The notes under the pieces were generated by a model that worked only from the letters and a program-made list of their open reading frames with translations, was not told the DNA's origin and made no database searches. Both the position numbers and the translations under genes were made by a program. A stretch of 62,082 nucleotides of DNA, counting the filler, from Circinaria calcarea (Eukaryota), in the NCBI GenBank assembly GCA_051942165.1. It is 12 parts of 12 records of this genome, joined end to end, with 100 filler letters (N's around TTAATTAATTAA, not from the genome) between each part and the next. Parts side by side here need not be neighbours in the genome. Positions count along the whole stretch, not along the records: positions 41,504 to 46,584 come from JAVECS010002058.1; 11 more parts are not named here. One strand, given 5' to 3'. Positions 4,431-59,900 of this stretch are shown in pieces. The first letter of the stretch is position 1, and each line of letters begins with the position of its first letter.

Positions 4431-5092
4431 TCACTCAATCTTAGGCGGATTCTTACTATTCGTACTATGCGAGAATGGACTATGGCTTCGTCTGCAGTCA
4501 CCAGAGTTAGCGCCTGATTCACCGAAATGCTGACGGAGGGAATACTCACGATCTCCTCTCACCTTCCTTTCTATATTCTTCAATAATGTGCATCATCTCC
4601 TTTCTCCCTGCCGCAGCATCCACGGTCCTCCCTGCCATACTCATATTAATCTGCTGCGACGAACCTGCTTTGAGCAGTCGCCTCAACAATAGATGTTTCA
4701 TGTGTATGCAAACGAACAGCCCACAGTCACTGCCGTTCTCCTGCTGCGGTGAATCATCCAAGTCGACGAACTTCAAGTCCTTGCCTATCAAGGTACCGAT
4801 CCTCTGTGTTAACAGCGTGGCATCACAGCTATTTGATGGATAGAGAGAATCATAGTGGAATGCAACCCCATCAATAATACTGACGACGAGTAAAGACCAA
4901 TGGCTGCCACCTTCCCCGATTTCGGCAACACGGTCGTTGATGGGAACAAATATGTGCGTCGTCTCGGTAAAGTCTGGAAGATTGCCTTTAAGGCTGGCAG
5001 TATCGGGTATAATCTTGAGCATCTGGGACATGGTAGGGCGGAGAAGGACGATATGCGCATTCTGGTGCTGGCTAAGGTGTTCACGTTCGAGG
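4431..5092 (-). CDS. denA: Ulp1-family NEDD8-specific protease (DEN1/NEP1/SENP8-like), 5'-partial; intron 4492-4549
   Basis: IFVPIND...GGSHWSLL...FHYDSL...QQENGSDCG catalytic motifs. Intron GTGAGT...GCTAAC...CAG gives last exon RSHSPFSHSTNSKNPPKIE* ending at 4431. Confidence 0.85.
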
Positions 5093-5192
5093 NNNNNNNN
5101 NNNNNNNNNNNNNNNNNNNNNNNNNNNNNNNNNNNNTTAATTAATTAANNNNNNNNNNNNNNNNNNNNNNNNNNNNNNNNNNNNNNNNNNNN
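5093..5192. other. Artificial contig spacer (first of 11; others at 10282-10381, 15471-15570, 20660-20759, 25848-25947, 31034-31133, 36220-36319, 41404-41503, 46585-46684, 51752-51851, 56919-57018)
   Basis: Identical N44-TTAATTAATTAA-N44 linker with stops in all six frames; flanking contigs decrease in length from 5092 to 5064 bp. Confidence 0.98.
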
Positions 5193-10281: not shown

Positions 10282-10942
10282 NNNNNNNNNNNNNNNNNNN
10301 NNNNNNNNNNNNNNNNNNNNNNNNNTTAATTAATTAANNNNNNNNNNNNNNNNNNNNNNNNNNNNNNNNNNNNNNNNNNNNGGGGAGTAGGCTGGGGGGT
10401 AGTGGGTAGTGGGTAGTGAAAGGATGACGAGGCGTTTTGGTTTGAGGAATGAAGGAAAGGAAAGGAAGGGGAGGGGATATTAGTGGATGTTGAAAGCTGA
10501 GGCTGAGTTGAAGACAACTTTAGATTTAGATTTGAATTTCCCCCCCCCCTTTTCTTGTACTGTACCATCCTGTGCTGTACCGTCCTGTGCTGTACTGCCC
10601 GTTACATACGTTCACATTCTTACGACGTACCACGTATGACGGGAAAGAGAGCAACGAAGCCCTCTCCTACCCCCCGGGGAATCCAGAAATCCCTTGGAGC
10701 ACCGAATCGAGTTAGGAGTTATCACGTCTCTCGGACCCATCGACCAAACTCGTTTCCGTAAGATGGAGATGGAGATGCTGTGGAGGAGGGAGAGGAGGGA
10801 AGAGGAGAGGAAGGGAGAGGAGGGACCAGCTGGGAGGCGGAAAGCAGAGGAGGGAGGCGTGAATGACTTTCCGTTACAATTCTCAATTCCCATCATCCTC
10901 GCTTGATTCATATATAGTCTCCCAAGAGTCCTGCCTGCCCGG

Positions 10943-12566: not shown

Positions 12567-15470
12567 TCAGCCCGAATCGCGGGTGGTTTTCTGTCTTTTT
12601 GCGGGTCTTGGGAGGAGGGGGGGTTGGAGAGTGCTGGGTGCGGACTCTTCTTGTTGTTTCCGCCCTGGGTGTTCATCCTTCGCTCCGTGATCCAGCAATA
12701 TCTGTACCACTGAGTGATGACCTCTTTTCAATGCAGCCTGCAGTGCATTGCCATACTCTCCGCCCTGGGCATTGACCTCCGCTCCGTGATCCAGCAGTAT
12801 TTGCGCCACCGAGTCGCGCCCTTTATATGATGCCGCCTGTAGTGCATTAACATAGAATCCGCCCTCGGCGTTCACCTCCGCTCCATTATTCAGCAGTATT
12901 TGCAACACCGAGCCGTGGCCTGTATATGATGCCGCCTGTAGTGCGTTGCCATATTCTCCGCCTTGAGCATTCACTTTAGCTCCTTTACTCAGCAGTATTT
13001 GCACCACCGAATCGTGCCCTCCTGCTGATGCCGCCTGTAATGCATTGCCAAATTGTCCGCCTTGAGCATTCACTTTAGCTCCTTTTTTTAGTAGTATTTG
13101 CACCACCGAGTCGTAACCTCCCGCTGATGCCGCCTGTAATGCATTGCCATACCGTCCGCCCTGGGCATTCACTTTGGCTCCATTGTTCAGCAGTATTTGC
13201 ACCACCAAATCGTGCCCTCCTAGTGATGCCGCTTGTAATGCATTGCTATACTCTCCGCCCTGAATATTCACTTCCGCTCCCTTTTCCAGCAGTATTTGCA
13301 CCACCGAGTCGTGGCCTCCTAATGATGCCGCTTGAAGTGCATTGCTATACTCTCCGCCCTGAATATTCACTTCCGCTCCCTTTTCCAGCAGCATTTGCAC
13401 CACCGAATCATAACCTCCATATGATGCCGCCTGTAGTGCATTACCATAGGATCCACCCTGGGCATTAACATCTGCTCCGTTTTTCAGCAGCAGTTGCACT
13501 ACTGAATCGTGACCTCTTGCTGATGCCGCCTGTAGTACATTGCCATACCGTCCGCTCTGGGCATTCACCTTCGCTCCGTTACTCAGCAGCATTTGCACCA
13601 CCGAATAATAGCCTGCTAGTGATGCCGCCTGTAATGCATTGCCATACCGTCCGCCCCGGGCATTCACCTTCGCTCCGTTACGCAGCAGCATTTGCACCAT
13701 TGATTCGTGCCCTCTCCATGATGCCGCCTGTAGTGCAGTACCATAATTTCTACTATAATCTTCGCCATGGTCCTGGGCATTGACCTCCGCTCCGTGATTC
13801 AGCAGTATTTGCACCACCGAATCGTAACCTTTATATGATGCCACTTGCAATGCATTGCCATAATATCCGCCCTGAATATTGATCCCGGCTCCGTTATTCA
13901 GCAGAATCTGCACCACCGAGTCGTGACCTAGTTCAGACGCCCAGATAAGTGCCGTTCGTCCTTGTCCATCTTGCGCATCTAAATCTAAATTCTCTGTCCG
14001 GAAAAGTGTTTTAAGGACATCACTATGTCCGTTGAGTGCTGCCAGTCGTATAGCATTCATTTCCGGTCGTCTTATGGATGGGCGAAATGCTCTCCAAAAA
14101 ACTGGAAACCAACGTTGAAATCTTTCAGTGCCCGTATTATACAACTCGCAGACTATATCCATCAGAAGAAAGGTCTTCTGTCCTTGTACACTCCGTACAT
14201 GCGCTGACCAATGTTTAGTAGCGTAATTCCAAAAGGCTTGTATATCGTCCGGGTCATCTGTTTCTTGCAATAGCTCGTTAGAACGAACTTTGTCCCTTGG
14301 TTTCTTAGCTTGAGCTGGCAACTGCTTCAATTTCTTGAGATCCATCCGGGCTAAGTATCCTACACAAATATGTGCCATATACCCCTCAACATCGACGTGG
14401 CTCAAACAATGTTTCCAGCCCTGATTGCTCGATGCAATACCGGCAGTCGAATTTACGAGGAATTCTTTCGCAGTCTGATGAATAAGATATATTCTAGAGT
14501 GATTGATAAATACGAATAAGCCGCACCACTGGGGGAGTTGTTGTTTCAGCCAATTCTTGTCTATACCTAGCTTCACCTCTAACTCAAGTTTTGGTGAGGT
14601 GGCAACCCCAACCGCCACCGCCATTTCCCCAACTGTTAATGGACGACGAGCAGCAACGATAATTTTGAGAATCTTGAATACATTGTCTTTGTTCCTACTT
14701 GCGCCCCTTTTCAGAATTTGTTCGTATGCATCCTCTACTGTGGCTGGTAGTGACTGAATCTCTTCCTCGCTCGGCCGAAAACTGTTTTGAAATGTCTCTT
14801 TGATGCATTCAATGGCTAGGTGAAGCCAAAGATATGTTCGATGCTCCATTGAAAGGAGTTTATTCTTAAGCCGAGCTTTCGCATCTGGCTGTAGAGGGAA
14901 TTTCTTGGCTAGTGTGTTCACTTGCTCTTCGATAACCAGATTGATTTCCCGGTGAATTTGAGCATTCTCATCTTCTCCCTTCAAACGGATCAATGGTAAA
15001 TGCGACACTGTGTCCTCAAACCGACTTTTAATACCCTCATATGGTCGACTCGTGATCAGAAATTTCAGCCAGTGCTGCTTTGGCGCAGTAGAAGATTTAT
15101 CCATGTAAAATTTGGATAACAGTGTGATAAGGCGGTCACGGTCCTGCTCGCGACACTCATCAAGGGCATCTAGCACGCATATGATATTATGTGCCTCTTT
15201 ATCTGTGCCTGCACCTAACATTATCCGCCACAGTTCATCAACCTCCCCCTGCAGCTTATCTTCCGACTTCTCCCACGCTGGTACTGCATGGCGAATCAAT
15301 TGGGGTTGGCTTGTGAATAACTGATGTACCAATGCGCATAGAGCGGTGGCCAGAGAATCCTGCGTTTCGTTGTCTTTGAAAAAGAAGTAGCAGACTGTAA
15401 CTTCCTCATTTTTATGAAGCCATTGTTCGACCAACGAATTTGAAAGCACGGACTTTCCACATCCCGGATC
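12567..15470 (-). CDS. Fungal NLR-like protein: NACHT + ~14 ankyrin repeats, 5'-partial (effector domain off-contig)
   Basis: Walker A DPGCGKS at the contig edge, CYFFFK, Walker B ICVLDALDEC, LITSRP, LIHQTAKEFL, then 33-aa GAxVNAQGGxYGNALQAAS repeats. Confidence 0.93.
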   Translation of the reverse strand, partial: DPGCGKSVLSNSLVEQWLHKNEEVTVCYFFFKDNETQDSLATALCALVHQLFTSQPQLIRHAVPAWEKSEDKLQGEVDELWRIMLGAGTDKEAHNIICVLDALDECREQDRDRLITLLSKFYMDKSSTAPKQHWLKFLITSRPYEGIKSRFEDTVSHLPLIRLKGEDENAQIHREINLVIEEQVNTLAKKFPLQPDAKARLKNKLLSMEHRTYLWLHLAIECIKETFQNSFRPSEEEIQSLPATVEDAYEQILKRGASRNKDNVFKILKIIVAARRPLTVGEMAVAVGVATSPKLELEVKLGIDKNWLKQQLPQWCGLFVFINHSRIYLIHQTAKEFLVNSTAGIASSNQGWKHCLSHVDVEGYMAHICVGYLARMDLKKLKQLPAQAKKPRDKVRSNELLQETDDPDDIQAFWNYATKHWSAHVRSVQGQKTFLLMDIVCELYNTGTERFQRWFPVFWRAFRPSIRRPEMNAIRLAALNGHSDVLKTLFRTENLDLDAQDGQGRTALIWASELGHDSVVQILLNNGAGINIQGGYYGNALQVASYKGYDSVVQILLNHGAEVNAQDHGEDYSRNYGTALQAASWRGHESMVQMLLRNGAKVNARGGRYGNALQAASLAGYYSVVQMLLSNGAKVNAQSGRYGNVLQAASARGHDSVVQLLLKNGADVNAQGGSYGNALQAASYGGYDSVVQMLLEKGAEVNIQGGEYSNALQAASLGGHDSVVQILLEKGAEVNIQGGEYSNALQAASLGGHDLVVQILLNNGAKVNAQGGRYGNALQAASAGGYDSVVQILLKKGAKVNAQGGQFGNALQAASAGGHDSVVQILLSKGAKVNAQGGEYGNALQAASYTGHGSVLQILLNNGAEVNAEGGFYVNALQAASYKGRDSVAQILLDHGAEVNAQGGEYGNALQAALKRGHHSVVQILLDHGAKDEHPGRKQQEESAPSTLQPPLLPRPAKRQKTTRDSG

Positions 15471-15571
15471 NNNNNNNNNNNNNNNNNNNNNNNNNNNNNN
15501 NNNNNNNNNNNNNNTTAATTAATTAANNNNNNNNNNNNNNNNNNNNNNNNNNNNNNNNNNNNNNNNNNNNA

Positions 15572-20659: not shown

Positions 20660-21003
20660 NNNNNNNNNNNNNNNNNNNNNNNNNNNNNNNNNNNNNNNNN
20701 NNNTTAATTAATTAANNNNNNNNNNNNNNNNNNNNNNNNNNNNNNNNNNNNNNNNNNNNCCTGAATACTTACATATCCCCCTCCTGTGTGGCGTATCACA
20801 TACCCTGCATACAGCCAATAAACCCAGACTGCGCAATTATCACGAAAATTTATACGGAAAAGCAGAATCCAAATTATATAGTAGAAATACAGCAATATCC
20901 GTGGGTTTAATAGCATTTACATAGAGGGAATCATTTTATCGAAATTAATTCTCGAAAATTCCCCGCGAGATTCAGAGTTACGCGTAAACAAAGATAGTGT
21001 TTA

Positions 21004-25814: not shown

Positions 25815-25949
25815 GAAAAAAGGGCATACTCCGGGGTTATGTAGTACNNNNNNNNNNNNNNNNNNNNNNNNNNNNNNNNNNNNNNNNNNNNTTAATTAAT
25901 TAANNNNNNNNNNNNNNNNNNNNNNNNNNNNNNNNNNNNNNNNNNNNCC

Positions 25950-30648: not shown

Positions 30649-31157
30649 AAACCCTCTCTCTGTCAGGTGTCTACTCCTTGTGTCCCGGCTACCTCCAGAT
30701 TGCGATGCGCATGGTTGCAGCCGTGGGAATATACACATTGGGCGGTAACCAGCGCTTCCTGCGCGTCGCACGCGGCCATACCCTACCCATCTCTTGCTAC
30801 TCGTTCCGTGGTCGATCAGACTCTATGCTACGGTCTATGGTCAGCCTATGAAAAGTGTCGCATACTGTCACAAGGAGAAGCGGTTGGGGGAAATATTTAC
30901 GGTGGCAGCTTTCACAATCCCAACCCCCTCAAGTGCGTGATTGGTTAAAGGTTACATTCATTACTACGATAATGCAGTATACTCAGGATTAATAGTTTAC
31001 GAGACCTATATTGCGATACGTAAACCAATATACNNNNNNNNNNNNNNNNNNNNNNNNNNNNNNNNNNNNNNNNNNNNTTAATTAATTAANNNNNNNNNNN
31101 NNNNNNNNNNNNNNNNNNNNNNNNNNNNNNNNNATTGATTGCTAAGAATTCGAGCAG

Positions 31158-36219: not shown

Positions 36220-36377
36220 NNNNNNNNNNNNNNNNNNNNNNNNNNNNNNNNNNNNNNNNNNNNTTAATTAATTAANNNNNNNNNNNNNNNNNNNNNNNNN
36301 NNNNNNNNNNNNNNNNNNNGTACCCGAACTGAACATGCGCCCGCCATGACATTATCGGACAGGGATGGGAATTACTC

Positions 36378-41403: not shown

Positions 41404-42659
41404 NNNNNNNNNNNNNNNNNNNNNNNNNNNNNNNNNNNNNNNNNNNNTTAATTAATTAANNNNNNNNNNNNNNNNNNNNNNNNNNNNNNNNNNNNNNNNN
41501 NNNTCCCTGCTCCCCTGTGCTCCCCCGTGCTCCCCTGCTGCTCTCTCGCTGCTCCCTTTTAAAACGGCCTTACTCCCTTTCCACACCGAAAACGGATCAG
41601 GCTCACCCCCATCTCGGGGCATATATAATATATATATATCGGTAGATGCATCACCGAGCTAACCGAATCTTCAAAAATGGAATTGCTAATTATTTTTAAG
41701 AAAACGAAAATACACCGTTTTTATAGTTATCTAAATTAAAAACCTTCTTTTTTATTCCTAAAATTTTCCCCTAACTACCATCCGGATTGATCGGCTTTGC
41801 CGTAGTTTTTTGTTAACTTAATTCCATGCACTTGCGTTGCATGTAATTAAAAATAAAAAATGTACTGTAGCTTCTCCTTGCAGGTAGGATGAGGACACTC
41901 GAAGGGATACTTCTTTTTCAGATATTGATAATGTATCTTCTCTAAATGACGAGAGAATCGAACGTATGTATTGAGAACTCCCGCGTTCTGTCGGCCAAGA
42001 CAGAAAAGGCATGTTGATGGCTTATAATGAAGTGAATAGCGTAAAATAGAGTTTCGTAAACGGTCTTCCGAGAGATATTTGACGGCGAGGGGAAAAGATA
42101 TTTACCCCCGCTCTTCCCGGCGAGAGTATAATTAATTTATATTAGATATAACTATAATGCGTCGCTCAGTCGTATCCTTTATAATAAAAAACGGTTTAAA
42201 GAGAATTCTAGCTAACTGAACACGCTCAGGTAGGGAAGGGGGTGCCTTACGAGAGATTATTATTTAAATATTATCATCATTACTAGAATTATTATTATGG
42301 CTGTTGCCATCGCCGCTGTTGTTATTGCTGTTTTTCTCGTTACTTTTATATTCAAACCATTCCGCGCGTAGTTTGATCTTAGCTAGATTCCTTTGGTTCT
42401 TTATCTCGTTTTTATACGCTCGCACCGCCTTATAAAAGAGTAAAGCCACTTCTGTTCCCTGTTTCTCGGCTTCAGTAATAGAGCCGTAGCGTTTAGTATA
42501 TTCGTTAACCAATTCTAGCCTTATACTGTGTAGTTGAATCACCGCTGGAAGATTAAATATCTTCAAGTGTTATTTTTTAGAGATTTCTTTTGGGGCGCGA
42601 AGGTCTCGAGAACGTATTATATCACCCGCTGTAAATATAACGGATATTCGGTTTTCAAG

Positions 42660-43028
42660 TGTTACGTCCCTAAGCTTCTTAGGCAAAGGCAATGCTAGTC
42701 ACTGGTATAAGGCAGGGGCTCTGTAATATGTACCAAGGTTCTATACCAATCACTTGGCAAGTAATAAGTGACAATAGAAGTACATTGCTACACTTGTAAG
42801 GTCTTGACCACACAGGTCAAATACTACGGAAAGGACTGAGACTATATAGATCTTTCTGAGGTTACACGAACCTTCCCAAAAGGGGTGGACGTAGTGGACG
42901 TCGTGGACGTCGTGGACGTAACGACGTCCAGCACGTCCAGTACGTCCAGTACGTCCAGTACCAACAATACGCCTAGCCCGCGTACTGCTCAGACCTCTTG
43001 GCACAGCCCTGCGAGGTGTGCCATTACA
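42660..43028. mobile_element. Solo LTR (369 bp) inserted in the captain gene
   Basis: TGTTAC...ATTACA termini with perfect 5-bp TSD TCAAG (42655-59 and 43029-33); removing it restores ...NIFLGLENRISV... Confidence 0.9.
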
Positions 43029-43932
43029 TCAAGGCCTAGAAATATGTTCTAGATATCCCATTTCACTATTTATAACCTATACTTTTTATCGAACATCTTT
43101 GGATCTGCATAGCCCATAGCCTGCATTGTAAGAGAATAGGGAGCGTAACCTAAAACAGTTTACGTTAGCATGATTTAAGGCAATAATTTGTCGGTAATAA
43201 GCTGTATCGTTTATAGCGTTGCTAGAGTCTCGTCGAATAAAATAAAAAGGCGGCGCCGTTTTAAATCCATTATTAAGACATATCTGGCGCCAATTAATAC
43301 TTAGAACTGAATATATTTCTAACTAGTTTATAACCACAGTATTCCGGATGCTACGAAGGATGGGTTTAAACTTTATATCTTCCTTCTATTTAAAGACCTT
43401 TCGTTTTGTGCCGTTAGGGATTTTTGCGTTATAGATAACAGCCGCTGTATTATATTTATTATCAAAGGCATTATTTGCGAGAGCGAGTATAATAAAATAA
43501 ATAACTAGATATAATCCTAGACAGCCATTAAATTTTTAGATAATATAAATTATTCTGGAATAATGGTTAGCTGGTGGAATATAGAATACCAGAAAAACGA
43601 ATGAAGAAAGAAAAAAGGATCTTATAATTTATTCTTATCCCGACGCCCTTTCATAAGGTTAAGGGTAATGCGAATAGCGAAAATAAAGATAAGCTCGTAT
43701 TCACTATAAAATAGAACCGCTCCGGTGCCTTTAATTCTTTCGGAATTGCTTTCGGCAAGAGCGCCCGGTCTAGAAGTAATATATCCGAGAAGAAGGATAA
43801 AGAAAACCAGTTGGACTCTTTTTCTTTTTAGGGTATAATGATAGGTGTCGCCGTCCCAGAGATAGGTGATGATGCTTTTTAAATCCGCTGGCGTTATTAT
43901 ATCTACTTCCCTGGCCCTCCCTTCCAGTAATC

Positions 43933-44257
43933 TGTTATAGCGTGCCCGCCATGACATGCACTAGACCCGGTTGGGATAGGATCACGGGTCGGGGGAACTT
44001 CCACCGTAAGGATGTTTAGTGTGCTCATGGTGCTCATAGAGATAAGCGGGGTGAGCAGGGTGAGCAGGATGCTCGGTATGCTCATGGTGCTCGGGAAGGT
44101 GAGCACGGTGAGCAGAGCATTATATATAGCAGGCTATTCCCGCTCTTTAGAATAGCATGCTTATAGACCGTGTTCAATAGACTCCATACTATTGAGTCTA
44201 GGGCAACAGTTCAACTACACCCTATGTAACCGTGCTATCACCAATCGGGACTTAACA
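43933..44257. mobile_element. Solo LTR (325 bp) inserted in the captain gene
   Basis: TGTTA...TAACA termini, near-TSD TAATC/TATTC, internal TATATATAG box; captain coding sequence on both sides. Confidence 0.8.
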
Positions 44258-45115
44258 TATTCCTCATTAGGCCCCAAGGATTGCAGCGCCCTTACATAAT
44301 CTAAACCTTTTTTTTAATATCGTTTTAATGGTTTACCGAAGCTTAGTTATAGATATAAACGGGGATGAATAATTTACTTATCGTAGTCATCTTGGTGGAG
44401 ATTATTGGGTTCATGCTTTTCCCGATCTTATATTTATATACGGTCTGCATTCTGCGAAACCGGTCTATCGCGGTATTAACCCGTTTGATTTGGCTTCCGC
44501 GCAACAGCCATTCTATATATTTAATTAGGAAAGGAGCGGTGCTCTAAGCTAGATATTATCAGTAATCTCTTTAAATAAAGGTATAAAACCTTTCTTATAT
44601 TAGCCGCGATTCACAGGTCCAATAATTTCAGGGACAAGCTTCACTTTTTCTATTTTTCTGTTATTACGATTAACTGGATGCGGGCGACGATAGAGAGATC
44701 ACTTGCCCTATTATCGTTAAGCTCATTAATATCTTTTTTAAGATAGTATTCCGGTCCCAATTCCGATTGAGGTGTTCGGCCATGACGGCTCATGGCTGAT
44801 AAATAGATTCGGGTGAGGTCGAGGAGATGGAGGAAGAATGTATACCGAGGAGAGGTCCGAGGAAGCACAGGTCAAGAAAAAAAATCGTGGGCAGTGCCCT
44901 TCAGCCCGTTTCCGAGCCATTATAGGTATAAGGAGCCAGCAATGGCTGACACCACGCCGGAACCGAATACTATACATCCAGAATTGACAGCGTTGCGGCG
45001 AAAAAAACGGCGACAAAAAGGGCCAGAGAGTTAAAAGCGAATGACGTCGCCGCTTTATTTTTCACTAAACCTGATTCGGACCAACGGGACTCTGATGCGG
45101 TGGATCTAAACACAT

Positions 45116-45151
45116 GGGATGCCCAGTTCTCTTGAGTCTGTGGTCGTATGT
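45116..45151 (-). rRNA. 5S rRNA gene, 5' 36 nt only (disrupted target site)
   Basis: ACATACGACCACAGACTCAAGAGAACTGGGCATCCC matches the Pezizomycotina 5S 5' end; similarity stops where GTCCGCTC should follow. Confidence 0.85.
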
Positions 45152-45174
45152 GATTGAATGTTAGTCAAATTAGA

Positions 45175-45180
45175 TATATA
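45175..45180 (-). promoter_or_regulatory. TATA box at -29..-24 of the 5S gene
   Basis: TATATA lies 29-24 nt upstream of the 5S +1, the position known for dispersed Neurospora 5S genes. Confidence 0.65.
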
Positions 45181-45444
45181 TTCTAATGACAGCACCGCAT
45201 AAGATGTGCAGAGTAACGGACGGGAGAAAATTCTTATGGGATCTACGTAAGAAAGCCACTGATGTTAAAAGGATCATCACAAATTTAGAAGCCTGATCTT
45301 AGGCGATTATTCTTATCGATAGTGTTTCGTTACTCCGTAGTGTCACTAGATTTCCGTCGTGTCAATTTTCTGAAAAGAGAGTGACAATAATGGAGAATGT
45401 GGTCCCAAAATAGTATCATTCCTTGATGGTCCGGCTTGCATAAG

Positions 45445-46584
45445 ATGTCCAGCGTCGGAAGTGATGAATTTGGAGAGGTTGACGAAGAAGATCTGTTACT
45501 GGTAGCTACTCAAGCTGAAAGGCAAGAGAGCGGTCACCCGAGGCAAATACAAGCGGATTCACCAGTATACCGAGCCCGAAAACGCCGTCGCCTCAACGAT
45601 CTTGCGGGTGACCGAGGGCAAGAAGACGATGATGGCTCCATCACCTCGCAAGACGCATCAACATCACCGGCCCAATTAAGAGACGGGGTGGGCAATGGCG
45701 AGGAGGATATTTCCAAGAATAGGCCCAAGTCCCGACACAAGATTCATATACCCAAACAAGCCGACATTCCAAAAGACTCATTTTACACACAACTACCTCG
45801 ATCGTCTCAAAGTCCGTATCGTATTCGTGGGCCGTATTGGCAGAAGCCGAAGTCAAAGTCACCATCTCCCCTGGTGGTTAGAGAGAGTCTACCGCGTTGC
45901 GAGCAGCATGAGGATCAGACGAGGGACTTCTCTGCTAGTCAAAACGCTCTCTTTTACAGTGATGATGAGGCTCTTACAATAAGCCCAAGGCAGCCCGATG
46001 AACGGCAACACAGAGGTTTACCAGATCAAAGCCGCTTCACCCCAAAAGATGTATCCGGCCAGCGAGCTTCCACTCGCCCTCTTGCTACAGCCGACAAAAA
46101 TGCGATTGATGAGCTTGTGGATTTGCCATTGGGAGCGTTCTCGTCGCCAGTGCTCACTAAAGGCAACCCAAACGATGCTATAGAAGTGCCTTCTCAAGAT
46201 GAATATACACAACAATGGCAGTCTCAGGCAACACGACCTCGGAAGCTTGTAGGAGCGCAGGCCAACTTACGACAAACCACATTGTTCGGCGGTGAAGCTC
46301 AGATTGCTGGGTCTCAATCACAGTCAACAAGGCGGCACAACTGGCCCCTTGTAGACCGAGAGGAACCCCCTACTCATCATAAACTCGACAATGATGCTTT
46401 AAAAACATGGGTATATCCTACCAACCTCGGAAGTATTAGGGACTACCAATACAACATCGTCGCCCGAGGTCTCTACCATAATCTCTTGGTCGCTCTACCT
46501 ACGGGACTGGGAAAGACGTTCATTGCAGCAACAATCATGCTGAACTGGTTTCGCTGGACTAGAGATGCACAGATAGTTTTCGTG
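45445..46584 (+). CDS. MPH1: ATP-dependent DNA helicase Mph1/FANCM, 3'-partial
   Basis: [17 protein letters not shown]...[19 protein letters not shown]...[24 protein letters not shown]. Confidence 0.93.
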
Positions 46585-49500
46585 NNNNNNNNNNNNNNNN
46601 NNNNNNNNNNNNNNNNNNNNNNNNNNNNTTAATTAATTAANNNNNNNNNNNNNNNNNNNNNNNNNNNNNNNNNNNNNNNNNNNNGTGAAGGGAGAAGGGC
46701 GATCAGTGGGGACGGACGGAGGTTGATGTCGTACTTCGTTGATTCACAGGTGTTTCTGCCAACGCCTTCTTTGGCAAAAGGCCCAGATCGTGCAAGTTGA
46801 TGATTCTCTGAAGGTTTTCCTGTCCTGGATTCCCAACCCGCTGGTGTGGAGACGTATGATTTTCCGACATGGGCCTCGGATGGTCTTGGGGGCCCGGAGA
46901 TTGTGGAGTGTGATGTTATTAGCTAGTTGTGAAGAGATGGTGACGGACGAAGGCAGTGCGCTGGGCAGTCTCCAAGATACAGTGGTCAAGTAATAAGCAT
47001 ACCCTGCGATGGCAATGTCCACCGCCAATGGAAAAGGCCAGGTCCCCGAGTTGGAATGATTTGAGGACTTGTTACGATTCTAGTGCAAGTGGTCTCCGTT
47101 TTCCCAGCTGTACTCTTGAAGGGGGGGGGGACTAGCGAAGCTCTATGTACAGGAAGTGGTTTGAAGAGCCCACGGCCCCTGCCAGTAATCCGTCCCTAGT
47201 CCTGCGGCAGGCAGTACCGCGCCCCCATGCAACTACAGGGCAGGCCGTCCAGGGCTCAAGGCTTGATGCAGCTTTGCCTACGGCTTGCATGGATTCGGGT
47301 CGCTTGGCTTGCAGTTCGGAAGGATCATGGGTAACGGAGGTATGGTCGACGAGAGGGCAGGTGGCACCAACAGGGAGGGTGGGCTACACAGAAATGGGAC
47401 GAATGGGATGAATGGGATGAATGGGGACGAATGGAACCAATCAGGCGCAGAATTGGAAGGGTAGCGGAAAAGGCAGCAATCGAAGGTCGCATCGACTGGT
47501 GTGAAGCTGACTGTGACGATTGAAACAATTCGCTTCCCCGTCATCCTGTCGGCGACCAAGAGACCGCACACGGAGTAGTATTCTCGTGGTTGCCACGAGG
47601 CCGAAGCACCAACCGCCGTCGACTAGCCCTGCCACTTGCCTCGTAAACGGGGCTTGGACTCTGGACTTTTGGACTCTTTGGACTCCTGGACTCTTGGTCC
47701 CTGGACTGGGCTAGGAATATTAATTAACGCGGCCGGTTGATTAATGTTTCGACGATGGACTCCATCGAAAGGCCGACCGGGGCTAGGAACATTACTGTGG
47801 TCTGGTCGCAGGCATAACAAATGTTAGCCGTCGATTTCATGTGTAACAATTCACTTCGAATCCATACAAAGATCTAGAATAGGCACCGCACACCCTCGCT
47901 ATCATCAAGAATTCCTACGCTTGTATTCCGAGTATGGAAGGGTTTGTCGAAAACCGCGCCAACACATAATGTCATGCCTGCGACCACTGTAGTCCAGAAT
48001 TTCGCGATATCGACGCTCCCAAATTTCCCAGCCTTTTCTTCCACTCCACCGGAAAAACAGACATCCACGAAAAGATCACCTCTTGGACCATCGACGTCAA
48101 AGCATAGAACATGGTGGGATTCTGATTGGCTTACAGGCAATGTTCAGGGACAACGTTTTATGCTAATGATCAATCTACGGAGTGAGCCGCCGCCACCGAT
48201 TTACGGAATGTCAAAGATTCTTTTGGTTCTTCGCCTGCATCGGTCAATAGAATTGAGATTGGGTACTTGACGCAAAGGGCGGTGGGAGATCCCAGCACCG
48301 GGGAAGCAAGATCTGAACCTTCTTCTGGATAAGGTGGCCTCTAGATACATTCCGCTCCAGCCAGAGGGGTTGTTGGGGTTCGTGTGGCTTTAATCGTGTG
48401 GATTTCTGGAGAAGCAGTTGAGAACCCTGCGGCAGCATCTTACCCAAAGGCTACTCTGTAGAATCTACACCCGTAATCGGGAATAGATGAATTTTCACCT
48501 CGGGGGAGTTGCCGCCTGTCAGAGGCATTGTTGACGCAGCAATGATTCCATGATTGGATCAGTCAGTCATCAGTGAGTCCTTTGACAGGGTCCCAAACTG
48601 CATCAATAAATACAACGAACCGTGGCACCCTTGGTCACCCTCTTCATCATAGCTACTTCTGATAGGTCTGGGCTCGGTATCGATTCAGATTTGCCTGGCC
48701 TTATTACCCCTGGCTCGCGGCTCGAGATCCTAAGCGCTTGTCTAACTTGGGCTTAAGGTCCGAGATGGTTACACCCCAAGAACGAATGGTTATCCTTCCT
48801 GAAGAACGCAAGGCTAAGCAACGTCCCAAAAGTCGCATTCCCCGGGACTTTTCTCGTGTTGCCTTGCTACCCGTCCTTCCCGTCCTACCGACACCAGAGG
48901 TCAGCATCCCAAGCAAGAGCAGCGTAGAGAGCACGTCACCGTGTAACACTCCTAAACTTCGACGAAGACGTAGGGCTCCTGGAGGCAACCCCCAACGGCC
49001 ACTGCGCTGTCCGTATAGGCATCCTCTAGTCAAGTTGCAAAAACTGCGCCCGTTGGCACAGCCAGATGAGTCCGGTTCTGGCACTGGCACCGGCATCCAC
49101 GATGCTTTCCGCAGTAAGCTGCACAGGGTCTCGTGGATGACGGCGCGCCGCTATGGATGGCGCAGGACGGGGTGGGTGTCCAACGTCAAAGCAATCAATC
49201 TTGCATTGAGCCAACTTTGCGCCCATCCAGTGTGGTCTCTGCTGATGCATACAGAGTACAGACAGCTCGGGCTAGAGTCCTTTACTAAGGTTACGTGTTA
49301 TACATGGTTAAATACAAGGGTATTTCTTATTTACCTGATTTCCCATCAGCGTTTTATACTTTTTCCGAGTCTTTACCAGAGCACCATGCGCTTAAGCAAG
49401 CACTATCAGCTGTATCATAATTTGTATTTCTGGCACTAAGTGTACCATACCCTGTTAGTAATTAAAGCGGCGTTGTACAAGGACCATGAATGCCACGAAG

Positions 49501-51851
49501 CATTCTAGCCCGAGCTGTAACGTCCCCCTTCTTCGGCCGAACGCAAACGTAAACGAACGACGCTACTAGTAGATTGCTCTGCTCATTCCCATTCGGTAAT
49601 ACTCCCATTTCATGACCACGAGGCTGTCTGAACCTTATTCTGTAATCTTGACGATCTTGTTCATGATTGGTTCAGTAGGTAGACGTATGGATCTGTGCTG
49701 AGATTTATGGGTTTCTTTTGGCAATCGGCGACTGCAGCTCGGAAGAGCAACGAAAAGATTAGATAGACCCGGGAAAATTGCAAAGCGAGTGACCGGTCAA
49801 GCCCAAGTAAGATCCCGTTATTTGCACATCTCTGATAACCTGAGCGCTATCCCACGGCGTCCAAGTGCGAGAGCATGAAGCATATCTGGCAATACAGACG
49901 AACCGCGGTACTGCACAATAATACTTGTATAGGCAAATGAACCGTTATCAGCAACCTTGGAAGTCTCTGTGCATTGTTGTGGTAAAAGTCACATCCAAGG
50001 GGAAGCCTATTTATCATACAACGCCCACAAGTACCTATCGCACTGGATATCGAGAACATCTCAGATAGGAAACCCGGCGTTAGGATATCAAGCCGACTCC
50101 CAATCTCATAGTACCTCGGATCCATCCGAGCGCGGTCATTGCGGTCTTCAGGCAGTGACAGCAAGGCTCGTATCCGAACTTTCGAATGTATATGGGCCTT
50201 CGGTTGGCCTCGATTCTAAATGCTTTACTGTACGCCGAACCTTATCACTATACTATTCCTCAATTCCGGATCATCGCCATGCATGGGCCGAAGGAACCGC
50301 CAACGTGTCTGTCAAGGGTAGTCTTGGTGAGGACATTACTCGAAGACAGGGCGCCTAAAGTGCCACGAATATTCACGAGGAAAGGTGATAGTGGTTGTGC
50401 TTGGATCCTGGACGAAACCCATCAAAGGACGACCGCTATCATCTGTTTCTGTCACTAGCAACGCGTTTCATCAACGCGGCCAAGGGTTCCCTGCTCACCG
50501 ACACCCGTGGCTGTTGGAGCCTTCCTATTCACGCCTTCAACATTACCCTTTCCTTTCTTTTCTCTTGGCCGAGCTCTGAAGGCCAAGTTCCCAGTTCCCC
50601 GACCCAACTTATTAGGGCTCGGGTATTCAACTCTTCAGCTTGCGGACCATTCCGGCACGTATTAAAGACTTTTTTCTTTATGCCTCTTGGAGGTTCAACC
50701 GAAGCCAGACAACGCGGCCTGCAACCAATGTGACAATTGCAACATGGTGAAGCTTGCAGCACTTGGCCTAACGCACACCACCTTCAAGGCTTGCCCAAGA
50801 CCTCCGAAGCTATCACAAATTCACGAGGCAGTTGGCCCGATCGAACCTTCGATTCGCACGTGTCTACAATGACTGGTCCTTGAGCCTAATTTCCCAGCCT
50901 CTCTGGCATATAACACCGAAAATGGTTACAGTCTCATCAGGAACGTTCTCACCATATTCTCATTAAACTGACAAACTATGTTGATGAAAGACTTAATCAC
51001 GTCTGCAATGGGGCCCTCAAATAGCATCCTTGTGCAATAAAAATTCGATATCATCTTGCTCCCAACCGTCCCCTAGTCAGAAAGGTCCCTTCTTCGTTCG
51101 CAACACGACCCAACTACTCTCTACCGAAGCCGAAGACATGACCACAAAAAGCTTGTGATGCTGTTCAAGAAAACAAGTGAGAAAAAAAAGACTATCTGCT
51201 CTGTCCTTCAACCGCATTGCCCCAGGGCCCCTACGATATGGCGAGGATTTAAGCTTTTAAGCATACGTTGCAGTAGCTGTTGGACAGGGGGTGGGTAATT
51301 CACCCATATCCAACTCCGGTTTGTTCTCCGTCGCGTGAATGTTGGATGGACGGGCCAGATGGAGTTGGTCTCGTGCGGCCGGGCGGTTATCAGTAGCGGG
51401 ATTGCTTGGAGTAGCCGCAATAGTTTAGAGTGCCTTGATCTTTTGGTGCTCTATTCCAGCGTTTGAAAACTTTGATTCATATATTACTGTTTGTACTAGG
51501 TCATTCATGTTTACAGCTGCTTCATCAGCTACTGAGTTAGCCCGCCCTTATATATTTCTAGCAGTCCCTTCTCAATCTTATTCTCCCTGGACCTGCTCAT
51601 CTCTTCATCTCTGACCTCATGTTCCGATTTCCAGGAATGGCTACGGTCACAGCCCCCACCAACTCCCTCAAGCCCCTGACCCTATCCTCCATCGCCCCTT
51701 CCAAGAACACTCTCGCGACAACCCAAGCATGAATTCCCCCGGGCTCCTCCTNNNNNNNNNNNNNNNNNNNNNNNNNNNNNNNNNNNNNNNNNNNNTTAAT
51801 TAATTAANNNNNNNNNNNNNNNNNNNNNNNNNNNNNNNNNNNNNNNNNNNN

Positions 51852-56911: not shown

Positions 56912-59900
56912 CTGTCTCNNNNNNNNNNNNNNNNNNNNNNNNNNNNNNNNNNNNNNNNNNNNTTAATTAATTAANNNNNNNNNNNNNNNNNNNNNNNNNN
57001 NNNNNNNNNNNNNNNNNNCCCACCGGCCCCCTTCTTCTAAAATACAACTCAAACAACCAAAAAAAAGGAGGAAGAAGGGAAAGGCAAAAGAAAATAAGAA
57101 CGAGAACGAGAGGGGGAAGGGGATAAAGGTGCTGAGAATAACGTGTGGGGGCTTTAATACATGTTGGTGCTGGTGATGATGATGATGATGAAATTGGTGA
57201 ATGGGTTATTAAAGGAGTTGTGGGGTAGGTGGAAGATGCACTGAAATTACTAATTTTTTTAAAAAAAAATTCATTTAAAAAAAGGGGGAAAGGGCTGGTT
57301 TCGGTTGGGTTCGGTTGGTGGTGGGAATGTATCCCGGGAGGGGTGGCAAGGATAGGATGTACGAGGGCAGAGAAGGGGATGAAATGGAGTTAAAGTAAGT
57401 CGAGATTGGAAAAATCCAAACGGAAGCGAAAATGAAAGCGGGAAGAATGGTGTCTGTGGTGACGGGGTAGATTGGTATTTGGGGTATGGGGGGAGGGGAT
57501 AAGGATAGCGAGAATCAAATGGGGTTTCTTATGATTAGTTTGATATCCTTGCTTGAAAACCCGAGATCCAGTAGGTATCGAAATAGGAGAGTGAAGGAAA
57601 GTTTGGTAAAGGGTACTGAATCAACGATTTGGGCTGGAAGGGGGTGGAGGAAGGGTAGCGGGAAGCTTTATGGGTAGGGTGCGACGAGAAAAAAAGAAGA
57701 GGGAAGGGAAAGCCGGCGTAGGGTAGTGGAAACATTTTCAGTTGTGGACGTAAATTGACAATTAATGTCTGTTTCGTCTGCCTTTGCGATTTCCAGAAAA
57801 CCGCAAACATTCTACCTTATCCCCACAGCCCACAAGCCACACATGCCTGAAAGCTGCAGTCTCATTAATATAAACCCAGCTCACACCTAGACAAAACAGC
57901 AGCACCGACCTACTGATACAGAGTATATCATAATCCACTTACCCCTTCCATTCCTCTATTTCCTGGACGCCCTTGTTCAACCGCACTCAGGTCCAAACTG
58001 TGTTGAGCAAGCTGCTGGCTTCAGGTTCATTGCCAGTATATCGCTCATCCCATATCGCTTTCCCAGGAGTGTGAGCTATATTCAAGTGAGCAGCGGGCAA
58101 GTTGTCAGAGCAAAGAGACCTTAACCAAGGCGATTTCCGGCTGTGACAGTTAGTAGCTTTACGAAACGGAATCCAGCGATAGGCCTTGGCCGGTACGACT
58201 GGTAGCCCATGGTTGTATTCTTTCTCCGACGTGGAACGGCTACCTCGCAGCGGTAAGGCAAGTAGTAAGATGCCTCAGGCACTTACTCCCTCATATAGGG
58301 CATAAAGTTGTCGTATTTCCCATGTTTCGTAGGTGATAAAAAGTGGGATACCGAGATGAATACCATATTGGGTATTCTATTTCAGCATAGGGGGCTACCA
58401 GCTCATATCCATATCCTTGTCTCAATATTCAAGGACAATGCAAGAGAACTGGGATTCAACCATTCTATCAATTTGCACCGAAAGGCTGCGCCGCATATAC
58501 ATGCAGGTTTTGCCTTGAGGTTTAACTACCATGCGAGAGAACTCTCGATTGAGAATTGGATACGGAGTATTTGCAAGGGAAATGTGATGTTTATTTGGAA
58601 ATATAAAGTGAAATGGTAAGTTGAGAAAGTGAACTATGATATGTTTCGTTTTGATGTTGAACTATTAATCGAAACTATCCTTGGCCGAGCTTTTTTGGTT
58701 AAGAAACATAGGGTTAAGGTATAGATTGGAAGGCCGCTAACACATGGTCTTAGTATCCACCTTGAGTGAAAGGTCAACGATGCCTAAGAGAACCTCAGTT
58801 AAGCACTGAAATGTGATGTTAGGCATGGTCTTTAGCTCGTCGAACGATGGTGTAAAAGACAGTCTGCCATGGGAAAGGAAACCCCATGAGTTGTGTAAGG
58901 ACACCTTTACTAAATCAACACTACCGATAGCACACAAGAACCCATAATAGCATACGGCCATTGCGATCAGGACAGTAGCAAGGACATCCGCTGCAGCGTG
59001 AGCCATGTTCAACTGATTTTGAAACAGTTCAGCTGTAAGATTTCCAAGCGTATATTCGGGTTTCTGTCCGGAAAGTCGCTAAGGTATTGTTGATTCAAGT
59101 CAGTCAAAGCGAAGGGGAGGTGTCGTGGTTATCCATGCTGTCTCAGGTTGCGGAGCAGTACTTCAGCACGAGCAAAGCCTGAAGAACGCGGTGAGCTGCA
59201 TATAAATCGAGATCCAACTTGGAACCGTGCTGACCAACTCGGACGGAGCTTGTTTCGGAAGCAAGAGAGACACTTTGGCGGCAGAACTGGCGGAGATTCT
59301 CCTTAACCATACAGCTCTCGTGCCCAGTGCACTACAGTGTACCTACTCGGCTTCGAGCATGAAGCAGAGGGCTCGCAGGATGATATTGCAGGCGTCAACC
59401 TGCCCATACGCGAAGAGCCATTGCCGCTGCACCCCAGACATACTGCATATGCCGCATGCAGCGTAGTGCAGTGAGCTAGATACTTGGCTGTCCAATCAGA
59501 CTAGTTTAACGAATACGAGATTGAATTGCCATGAGCTGAACAAAGACCATGATGAGGCAAGAGATCGGAGATCTAAACGATCGGGGGTGCAGATGCTCGG
59601 CGAATGAGGAGAACAGCAGCACGAGGACTGTTCGAGAGAGCTTGCAGAGTGGTATTGCACAAATGCAAGGTACCTCCTCATTTAGTGGGTCCCGCAGTAG
59701 CCGGAAAGGAGAGATCATCACAACGAAAAGTGTACGGGTCAACAGAACTTACCTTGTTGATGGTAACAGCGGTAGAGTAGATACGGGAAGAGATAAGTCA
59801 AGGGAAACTATCTGCCTGGAAGTCGTCTCCACGAGGTAGACATGCGGCCACAAGCCACAAGCAGAGAAGGTTGAATGGAGGCTTCATATGGCCTTCCATG

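Follow-up and report, generated by a model that had tools for sequence, protein, structure and literature searches.

The window analysed here, a stretch of 62,082 nt of the genome of Circinaria calcarea (GenBank assembly GCA_051942165.1), carries a heavily damaged gene on its minus strand that extends from an ATG at 44793 to a TAG at 41775-41777. Judged by homology, the locus is a full-length DUF3435 (Pfam PF11917) tyrosine-recombinase pseudogene and belongs, in a loose sense, to the Starship 'captain' superfamily; its substitutions bear the signature of repeat-induced point mutation (RIP), and two insertions interrupt it. The window is made up of 12 contigs joined by eleven identical 100-nt linkers of the form N44-TTAATTAATTAA-N44 (5093-5192, 10282-10381, 15471-15570, 20660-20759, 25848-25947, 31034-31133, 36220-36319, 41404-41503, 46585-46684, 51752-51851 and 56919-57018). 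These pieces are sorted by size (5092, 5089, 5089, 5089, 5088, 5086, 5086, 5084, 5081, 5067, 5067 and 5064 bases) and are unrelated contigs, and gene neighbourhood across a linker is therefore meaningless. The sole usable genomic context of the pseudogene is its own contig, the ninth piece (41504-46584, 5,081 bp), whose left end lies only 270 bp past the stop codon.

Results

The gene model

Three homologues were used as tblastn queries against the window: P0030, a 684-residue protein of Lasallia pustulata (KAA6414651.1), P0011, and P0004, a 324-residue unnamed open reading frame (ORF) from a metagenome. P0030 matched in the following segments.

44555-44397, minus strand: P0030 residues 68-120
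43885-43628, minus strand: P0030 residues 151-247
43529-43200, minus strand: P0030 residues 258-367
43144-43034, minus strand: P0030 residues 368-404
42641-41778, minus strand: P0030 residues 411-678

Introns were placed by protein similarity and reading frame, which gave a model of four exons and three putative introns.

44645-44793, minus strand: exon 1 (codons 1-49 plus 2 nt), placed by N-terminal alignment to P0030; GC content 0.41-0.46, composite RIP index negative
44590-44644, minus strand: putative intron 1, 55 nt (GTGAAG...CTAAT...AAG), GT-AG ends intact; its removal gives continuous similarity to P0030
43595-44589, minus strand: exon 2, split by insertion 2, with the Arg of SRPG and the Lys of LMKG; matched by P0030 residues 68-120 and 151-247 in tblastn
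about 43530-43594, minus strand: uncertain intron 2, 65 nt without homology (GTATTC...CTAAC...CCAG), with a change of frame, at a gap in similarity
43208-43529, minus strand: exon 3, with the YFIRR (YxxR) box; DUF3435 positions 96-231 and tblastn
43150-43207, minus strand: putative intron 3, 58 nt, donor ATACAG (GT lost), branch CTAAC, acceptor TTTTAG; the sole phase-compatible donor
41775-43149, minus strand: exon 4, split by insertion 1, with MGY, the Tyr of FDKKY, RDLRAP and two C2H2-like fingers; 70% identity to P0004, DUF3435 positions 254-413

With introns and insertions removed, the virtual coding sequence is 2055 nt long (684 codons and a stop), the same length as P0030. Its read-through translation aligns with P0030 from end to end (225 of 653 aligned columns identical, or 34%) and scores 487-491 bits against a local family hidden Markov model built from 12 homologues. 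From the ATG at 44793 on, the opening 20 residues resemble the N-terminus of P0030, and the C-terminal end at the TAG (41775-41777) coincides with the end of P0004. A first-pass annotation had described the locus as a reconstructable full-length DUF3435 captain pseudogene, and with 684 codons and both termini matching those of homologues this description holds. The full-length homologues that cover the catalytic half number three, two of them 98% identical.

Skipping 43530-43594 leaves, by eye, 41 residues between KG and NNAF, compared with 40 in P0030 and P0011. At intron 3, the database ORF models of many relatives start just after the intron position (P0004, P0005 and P0008 at MQ[AV]MGH), as expected if an intron breaks the frame there; the model of P0006 starts two codons upstream of VSAAPES. 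The first-pass annotation had read two intron donors as AT in place of GT. One of these, ATACAG (43207), is plausible as a mutated donor, and the other, ATAAGT (its single occurrence, at 44381), belongs to coding sequence: the in-frame reading continues across it (33 residues compared with 30 in P0030) and no acceptor in the right phase follows.

DUF3435 is matched by three read-through pieces (with X at stops) that are colinear and span profile positions 3-413 of 418. P0003 (positions 3-86, E 0.0017, 17.8 bits) by itself falls under the curated Pfam gathering cut-off of 25.8 bits, and P0002 (positions 96-231, E 2.6e-7, 30.4 bits) and the C-terminal P0001 (positions 254-413, E 2e-8, 34.1 bits) exceed it, so that the reconstructed protein is not missed by the model. 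Single stop-to-stop fragments give weak matches (E 0.0026 and 0.054). When the C-terminal read-through frame was compared exhaustively with 1.84 billion proteins by HMMER (phmmer), 25 reached E<=0.001, with P0004 at the top (70% identity, E 4.7e-118); DUF3435 is present above the cut-off in 14 of the 15 matches that were scanned with Pfam, the remaining one, P0019, being low-complexity. Nothing came back from word-based homologue searches, whether with the N-terminal and middle read-through pieces or, against longer proteins, with P0004, and a metagenome scan with a 5-sequence alignment returned one 1.9-kb locus, L001, whose 35-residue match is uninformative on introns and boundaries. The cluster of P0006 includes two named proteins of L. 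pustulata, P0030 and P0029 (600 residues, SLM37746.1). Two leads come from Atlas, where P0030 is grouped with Ascomycota DUF3435/C2H2 clusters and where, over residues 14-405, its predicted model reaches template-modelling (TM) scores of 0.73-0.85 against phage-integrase clusters. No recombinase was found in PDB by a sequence profile search.

We note that many of the homologues (P0004-P0010, P0012, P0013, P0018, P0020, P0023, P0027 and P0028) are mostly ORFs of ~270-340 residues that start at or just before MGH. By their position, such ORFs are predicted last exons called as genes of their own, and public collections hold many truncated 'captains' of this kind that lack the first active-site residues. 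A Tangerine captain of 283 residues has been reported to lack active sites 1 and 2 (PMC13486527), and a gene call limited to the last exon might be the cause.

Catalytic motifs and zinc fingers

All of the recombinase motifs listed by the first-pass annotation are found on the minus strand, in the order in which it gave them.

43774-43763, minus strand: SRPG
43657-43646, minus strand: LMKG
43244-43230, minus strand: YFIRR
43117-43106, minus strand: MGYA, with the codon TAT at the His position (43111-43109)
43093-43079, minus strand: FDKKY, with the codon of the nucleophile Tyr at 43081-43079
42608-42591, minus strand: RDLRAP
42011-42000, minus strand: CLFC
41897-41880, minus strand: CPHPTC

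The Arg of SRPG, the Lys of MKG, the YxxR of YFIRR and the Tyr of FDKKY align with P0030 and P0011, and the tyrosine-recombinase set of Arg, Lys, YxxR and presumed nucleophile Tyr is in place, with roles assigned from the literature and from spacing. All 12 aligned homologues have the His of MGH; the pseudogene has a Tyr there, with a codon, TAT, that fits the proposed C>T change from CAT. From its position ten residues before the nucleophile Tyr we infer that this residue is the second catalytic His; the second conserved His of the tyrosine-recombinase set is absent from the pseudogene. The loss is secondary, in a pseudogene: 5 of 13 aligned His residues have become Tyr, that of MGH among them, and the change accordingly belongs to the damage suffered by the gene as a whole and is not what killed it.

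The further idea that YFIRR is a damaged box, with a second Tyr made from His by RIP, did not survive comparison. The Tyr is native in P0030, in P0011 and in the literature, YxxR being the box that captain clades 1 and 3 carry (PMC11162782).

The Cys and His residues at the C-terminus form two C2H2-like patterns (CLFC...HLEKIH and CPHPTC...LHATQVH) that are kept in at least 90% of homologues. The source name of P0030 is 'C2H2-type domain-containing', and several Ascomycota clusters in Atlas pair DUF3435 with that name; no zinc-finger Pfam model matches at E<=1, and the PDB sequence matches to zinc-finger proteins are weak (E 0.069-8.9). The protein begins with ~150 residues ahead of a YxxR-type catalytic domain and closes with a pair of C2H2-like zinc fingers. 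Internal stops number 15 (9 TAA, 5 TAG and 1 TGA), 14 of which are TAA or TAG, in line with the first impression that these two predominate. With 15 premature stops, the His of MGH and one splice donor lost, and two insertions, the gene as it reads here demonstrably cannot make a protein.

Directional mutation

Without its insertions the pseudogene has a GC content of 0.373, a TpA/ApT ratio of 1.05, a (CpA+TpG)/(ApC+GpT) ratio of 0.90 and a composite index of +0.14; in the other 11 contigs the corresponding ranges are 0.453-0.506, 0.68-0.84, 1.14-1.30 and -0.36 to -0.57. Usual thresholds for RIP are a TpA/ApT of >=0.89, a (CpA+TpG)/(ApC+GpT) of <=1.03 and a composite index of 0, and the pseudogene lies beyond each of them.

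The direction of change was assessed at the codon level against P0004, over 326 aligned columns. Identical columns number 231, and the 95 mismatches comprise 64 that require only C>T or G>A in the window, 12 that require only the reverse, 11 transversions and 8 that are mixed or ambiguous; the ratio of 64 to 12 has a binomial p of 1e-9. Comparison with P0030, which is more distant, gives 99 C>T/G>A changes, 18 reverse changes and 148 transversions. The 70 mutated sites implied by the comparison with P0004 fall at CpA (37), CpT (26), CpC (5) and CpG (2). An A follows 18 of 26 C>T sites (baseline 0.38, p 0.0012), and a T precedes 19 of 44 G>A sites (baseline 0.30, p 0.049). At aligned positions 6 of 16 Gln codons have become stops and 5 of 11 Cys codons have become Tyr. 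The CpA>TpA bias that the first-pass annotation called for is present, and TpA/ApT, the index that it named, is raised.

When the 64 changes of the C>T/G>A-only kind are set aside, ~90% of columns agree with P0004 ((231+64)/326), and the unmutated gene would have been close to P0004, which we take to be a near relative or paralogue of the gene before mutation. Damage is confined to ~41.6-44.7 kb: the signature stops ~100-150 nt inside the ORF, and neither exon 1, nor the 5' flank, nor the FANCM/Mph1-like neighbour is affected.

Similar patterns are seen among the database homologues. P0025 differs from P0030 at 42 positions, 39 of them C>T/G>A-only in P0025 and 0 in the reverse direction, and P0017 and P0015 compared with P0007 give ratios of 31:3 and 35:9. 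These 'proteins' look like translations of RIP-mutated copies from the same recombinase lineage, and the pattern of 39 to 0 in P0025 argues that RIP-hit copies of the P0030 lineage exist elsewhere. In two Lasallia assemblies, three loci of the P0030 cluster are listed (Tables S3/S4, PMC11162782). These observations on relatives lend indirect support to the view of the first-pass annotation that the element was probably multi-copy.

Insertions and short repeats

Two insertions lie in the pseudogene, and a related repeat lies at the end of the contig.

42660-43028, plus strand: insertion 1, a 369-bp solo long terminal repeat (LTR; TGTTAC...ATTACA), with the 5-bp target-site duplication TCAAG at 42655-42659 and 43029-43033
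43941-44345, no strand assigned: insertion 2, 405 bp, GC content 0.49, with the 7-bp direct repeat GTTATAG at 43934-43940 and 44346-44352
about 41504-41625, no strand assigned: a short-repeat fragment related to insertion 2, at the left end of the contig

Excision of insertion 1 with one repeat copy (374 nt) restores the frame, and P0004 runs uninterrupted over the empty site (...FLGLENR...). By the usual criteria, TG...CA ends and a 5-bp duplication, insertion 1 is identified as a solo LTR; the window holds neither a second copy of it nor an internal retroelement. Excision of insertion 2 with one repeat copy (412 nt) restores the frame exactly. The first-pass annotation had called both elements LTRs, and while both are real insertions whose removal restores the frame, only insertion 1 is a solo LTR and insertion 2 stays unclassified. 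No register of insertion 2 gives TG..CA ends, and its flanking repeat is 7 bp long. Its similarity to insertion 1 scores 17 compared with a shuffled mean of 18.7, a score that 162 of 200 shuffles reach. An LTR within insertion 2 starting TGTTAAGTCCC was considered and rejected, its 11-nt match to insertion 1 being within that same chance expectation and no target-site repeat fitting it.

Insertion 2 carries a TATA-like box and arrays of 9-mers, the latter similar to the fragment at 41504-41625 (local score 26 compared with a shuffled mean of 17.3; 1 of 200 shuffles reaches it). The 9-mers common to the two are of the GTGCTC/GGTGAGC type. Insertion 2 is best described as a predicted short dispersed repeat, and a real insertion, and the assembly probably broke inside the fragment at 41504-41625. 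By eye, insertion 2 and this fragment recall the bodies and TTTTAATGG-type tails of the 5S-related short interspersed elements (SINEs) of Aspergillus fumigatus that are printed in PMC5063351. A SINE-like family may describe them better than an LTR, and the length of the duplication, 7 bp, would fit a SINE. Both insertions are richer in GC (0.47 and 0.49) than the gene (0.37), and insertion 2 has no RIP signature (index -0.25), and for these reasons both probably arrived after the gene had been mutated.

The 5' flank and captain status

In the strict sense a captain is defined by its place: it is the DUF3435 gene found at the 5' end of an element that has boundaries and carries cargo (PMC9156397). 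The supplementary tables of PMC11162782 put P0030 and P0029 in one 90% cluster with laspus2_tyr7798, a gene annotated as the captain of the Lasallia Starship laspus2_s07456 (76156-141422, 65.3 kb) and located 557 bp from the upstream boundary of that element. We place the pseudogene in the superfamily in the loose sense, that of annotation by starfish, because P0030 and P0029 are listed there as 'tyr', because their cluster mate is the 'cap' of laspus2_s07456 and because the reconstruction aligns with P0030 from end to end. Both boundaries of laspus2_s07456 bear the 17-nt repeat cggacgggatgcccagt (Tables S4, S7 and S9, PMC11162782), and a single match to it occurs in the 62 kb (0.14 expected), at 45111-45127, where 14 of 17 positions agree and the last 12 are exact. 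The match, a candidate 5' edge of the element, lies 318-322 nt upstream of the pseudogene's ATG, in the following setting.

45111-45151, minus strand: a 36-nt fragment (45151 to 45116) resembling 5S ribosomal DNA (rDNA), which starts ACATACGACCACAG and ends in the 17-mer match
45217-45225, plus strand: CGGACGGGA, the other 9 nt (left arm and core) of the Lasallia boundary repeat, found by eye 89 nt from the first match

The 14-mer ACATACGACCACAG has a single match in the window compared with 0.03 expected, and 27 of the 36 positions of the fragment agree, by eye, with the 5S-derived heads printed in PMC5063351. With the captain of laspus2_s07456 in the homologue cluster, and with the boundary repeat of that element recurring upstream of the ATG, the chance that the pseudogene was the captain of a 5S-targeting Starship rises to about even.

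The minus strand of 45116-45225 has a permuted 5S-like layout, in which TCCCGTCCG and 65 nt are immediately followed by the 36-nt 5S-like 5' part ending ...GGGCATCCC. A further TCCCGTTGGTCCG is present at 45089-45077, 26 nt downstream of the end of the 36-nt fragment. The permuted layout could be a recombination scar at the target core of a Starship or a degenerate tandem copy of 5S.

The neighbouring gene and other contigs

The contig holds one further gene, which is divergent from the pseudogene.

45427-46584, plus strand: 5' part of an Mph1/FANCM-like helicase gene, the ORF being cut by the contig end

Residues 326-385 of this ORF match the N-terminal helicase part of FANCM (PDB 9el5_A, E 6e-14), and the Hef nuclease is also matched; the first 325 residues have no Pfam match. 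By these matches it is a predicted Mph1/FANCM-like host gene, and it is unmutated. The contig at 41504-46584 contains no tRNA and no Rfam family, and nothing in the whole window reaches an Rfam gathering score.

On other contigs of the same genome the window also holds a fragment of an Ulp1-like protease (4546-5136, minus strand), a 983-residue NACHT-ankyrin protein (12567-15518, minus strand) and a major facilitator superfamily (MFS) transporter gene. Ulp1-like proteases and NACHT-ankyrin genes are kinds of gene that often travel with Starships, and nothing ties these two to the pseudogene. We rejected the NOD-like receptor (NLR), the Ulp1-like protease and the other genes of the window as Starship cargo, all of them being on other contigs; reasoning from 'neighbouring genes' over joined contigs of ~5 kb is unsafe.

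Discussion

We have found that a gene of the captain type can be followed from its first Met to its stop in DNA that RIP and two insertions have since disrupted. We think it probable that the locus is a derelict gene of the DUF3435 Starship superfamily, which arrived with an active element, was mutated by RIP through a similar copy and received its insertions later. An active element carrying the recombinase gene would first have landed at the locus, and another copy within that nucleus, similar enough and probably a paralogous captain, would then have exposed the gene to RIP in sexual cycles. A retrotransposon would subsequently have entered the AT-rich DNA and collapsed to a solo LTR, and the 405-bp repeat would also have inserted. 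Going by what is known of the family, the original enzyme would have bound the element ends and cut with Tyr375, with Arg186, Lys226, Tyr340/Arg343 and the lost His365 as helpers, and the element would have moved by site-specific recombination. Its target would most likely have been the 5S rDNA core TCCC|GTCCG, a lead with roughly equal chances of being right or wrong, which we propose because the 5S-like fragment upstream of the ATG ends at this core.

The alternative that survives best, and that we nonetheless regard as unlikely, is that this RIP-degraded DUF3435 gene never headed a Starship but was either a captain copy left stranded or a unit, solitary or compact (~3 kb), with nothing but the recombinase, RIP having been set off solely by similarity to paralogous captains at the level of the gene. 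The onset of RIP inside the ORF, with the 5' flank spared as if the coding region alone had a look-alike, agrees with this, as does the fact that neither cargo nor a second boundary is visible on the 5-kb contig; a 2022 survey, moreover, placed only 194 of 1890 DUF3435 homologues in recognised Starships or in regions resembling them (PMC9156397). One member of the homologue's 90% cluster, however, is the genuine captain of a 65-kb element, the boundary repeat recurs at a captain-like distance (318 nt compared with 557 bp), and, as the contig ends so close beyond the stop, the absence of cargo is no evidence.

We consider it improbable that the AT-rich decay reflects RIP that leaked into a single-copy gene from repeated retroelements beside it, or the general AT-biased decay of a pseudogene. 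In Neurospora and Leptosphaeria RIP is known to leak into single-copy DNA nearby, three short repeats lie in or beside the gene (42660-43028, 43941-44345 and 41504-41620), and the composite index of +0.14 is modest. Yet leakage predicts the reverse of what is seen, for the repeats are the least mutated part of the locus, insertion 2 having the GC content and negative index given above and 41504-41703 having an index of -0.89. The preponderance of CpA over CpG among the altered sites (37 compared with 2 of 70) argues against plain deamination of methylated C, and the damage ends sharply before the neighbouring gene. That the contig is an assembly artefact, chimeric or collapsed from pieces of several degraded copies, is very improbable, for although the assembly is highly fragmented (contigs of ~5 kb) and this contig ends inside a repeat, the five homologous segments are colinear and total exactly 684 codons, and both insertions have matching target-site repeats.

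Several observations count against the reading of the locus as the RIP-mutated captain of an active, 5S-targeting element. With regard to RIP, the context baseline was drawn from the same mutated sequence, which makes that test conservative. RIP has left no signature in the opening ~150 nt of the ORF or in the 318 nt that separate the ATG from the candidate boundary, and this weighs against duplication of the whole element because such a duplication should have marked them. No second copy, as DNA or as protein, was found in the other 11 contigs (~56 kb searched). For intron 2, no clean pair of borders yields the expected spacing. With regard to the boundary, Rfam RF00001 (5S rRNA) has no match there at E<=10, truncated mode included; the second half-site CGGACGGGA at 45217-45225 is on the wrong side for a simple insertion; and the motif is oriented relative to the gene in the opposite way to that of the Lasallia element, a comparison that assumes that Table S7 prints repeats in contig orientation, as its ttac on '+' rows and gtaa on the '-' row suggest. 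Identity to the homologue of the Lasallia captain is, finally, only 34%.

The nearest parallel among described elements is the captain of laspus2_s07456 itself, with which the pseudogene shares its length (684 codons and 684 residues), a YxxR box and a DUF3435 domain with two C2H2-like fingers behind it. In the Lasallia gene a span of 2263 bp leaves 208 nt for introns (Table S3, PMC11162782), compared with 2233 bp and 178 nt for the pseudogene without its insertions, a correspondence that suits three short introns. The two differ in their low identity, in that the pseudogene is dead and in the opposite orientation of the boundary repeat relative to the gene. We note that the labels given to the P0030 cluster conflict, two members being assigned to 'fam08' (Moya) and the third to 'clade01' (Table S4, PMC11162782). 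Clade 2, which includes family 8 (Moya), is described as typically keeping HxxR (PMC11162782), whereas P0030 has YxxR, and the family label of the Lasallia cluster looks unreliable. P0004, which has 70% identity over the last exon and crosses the site of insertion 1, is unlike the pseudogene in being intact, in having the His of MGH and in being modelled from the last exon alone.

Comparison can also be made with HhpA, the captain of Hephaestus from Paecilomyces variotii, by way of its published residue positions: its central-box Y381, a Tyr in the place of His, and its nucleophile Y416 (PMC10104507) are 35 residues apart, as are Y340 and Y375 of the pseudogene. HhpA is of a different family, has the target TTAC(N7)A and has been shown to be active. 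The candidate boundary, at the end of a 5S-like fragment with the core TCCC|GTCCG, is reminiscent of 5S-targeting Starships such as Voyager and of Fusarium elements with the repeats tcccgtc or gacggga, which are among the Starship repeats of Table S7 (PMC11162782); 23% of curated Starship insertion sites are reported to be in 5S rDNA (PMC11162782). Voyager, however, inserts 20 bp from the start of 5S (PMC9156397), whereas the candidate break here is ~36 nt in and its 5S identity is unsupported by Rfam.

Derelict Starships and pseudogenised captains, such as the captain of Wallaby, have premature stops and RIP damage, and the pseudogene is the same in kind; the term 'derelict' has been recommended for such copies, and many annotated captains may be pseudogenes (PMC11162782). 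Like the captains of the Tangerine family, which are from Lecanoromycetes, the pseudogene has a link to that class, its nearest named homologues being those of a lichen-forming Lecanoromycete, and RIP of repeats has been reported in Xanthoria (PMC13486527). Most Tangerine captains have no core-binding domain, whereas the pseudogene has ~150 N-terminal residues before its DUF3435 match. Cryptons are likewise eukaryotic DNA elements of a few kb with a tyrosine recombinase, and DUF3435 repeats were first annotated as Cryptons (PMC9156397). DUF3435 captains nevertheless form a clade of their own, equally far from Crypton and bacterial recombinases (PMC9156397), and the pseudogene passes the DUF3435 model.

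We regard the locus as an ordinary derelict relic of a known kind, of which the first-pass annotation gave a largely correct account. RIP-degraded or pseudogenised captains have already been described (PMC11162782, PMC10104507), as have zinc fingers in a captain (PMC11162782) and 5S targeting. By itself the locus carries little weight: captains left derelict and mutated by RIP are to be expected, and the Starship literature already acknowledges how abundant they are. Its value is rather that of a worked example, in which a captain-type gene can be traced codon by codon despite 15 stops, two insertions and a lost donor, and which could be used in training pseudogene filters for captain annotation.

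The locus also adds a distant member, 34% identical, to a lineage with DUF3435 and a double C2H2 module that is otherwise known from Lasallia. The part that merits follow-up is the lead from 5S and the boundary repeat. It is conceivable, if doubtful, that we are looking at the 5' end of a 5S-targeting Starship from a lineage centred on lichen fungi, which shares its TCCC|GTCCG insertion core with its Lasallia relative but faces the other way. Only for the Arwing family has insertion in both directions been noted. Were this tentative reading true, it would mean orientation-flexible 5S targeting outside the Arwing family, and the permuted sequence at 45225-45116 would be the scar of repeated recombination at the site. 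For the lineage with the double C2H2 module, the locus is a hint of targeting at a specific core of the 5S rDNA.

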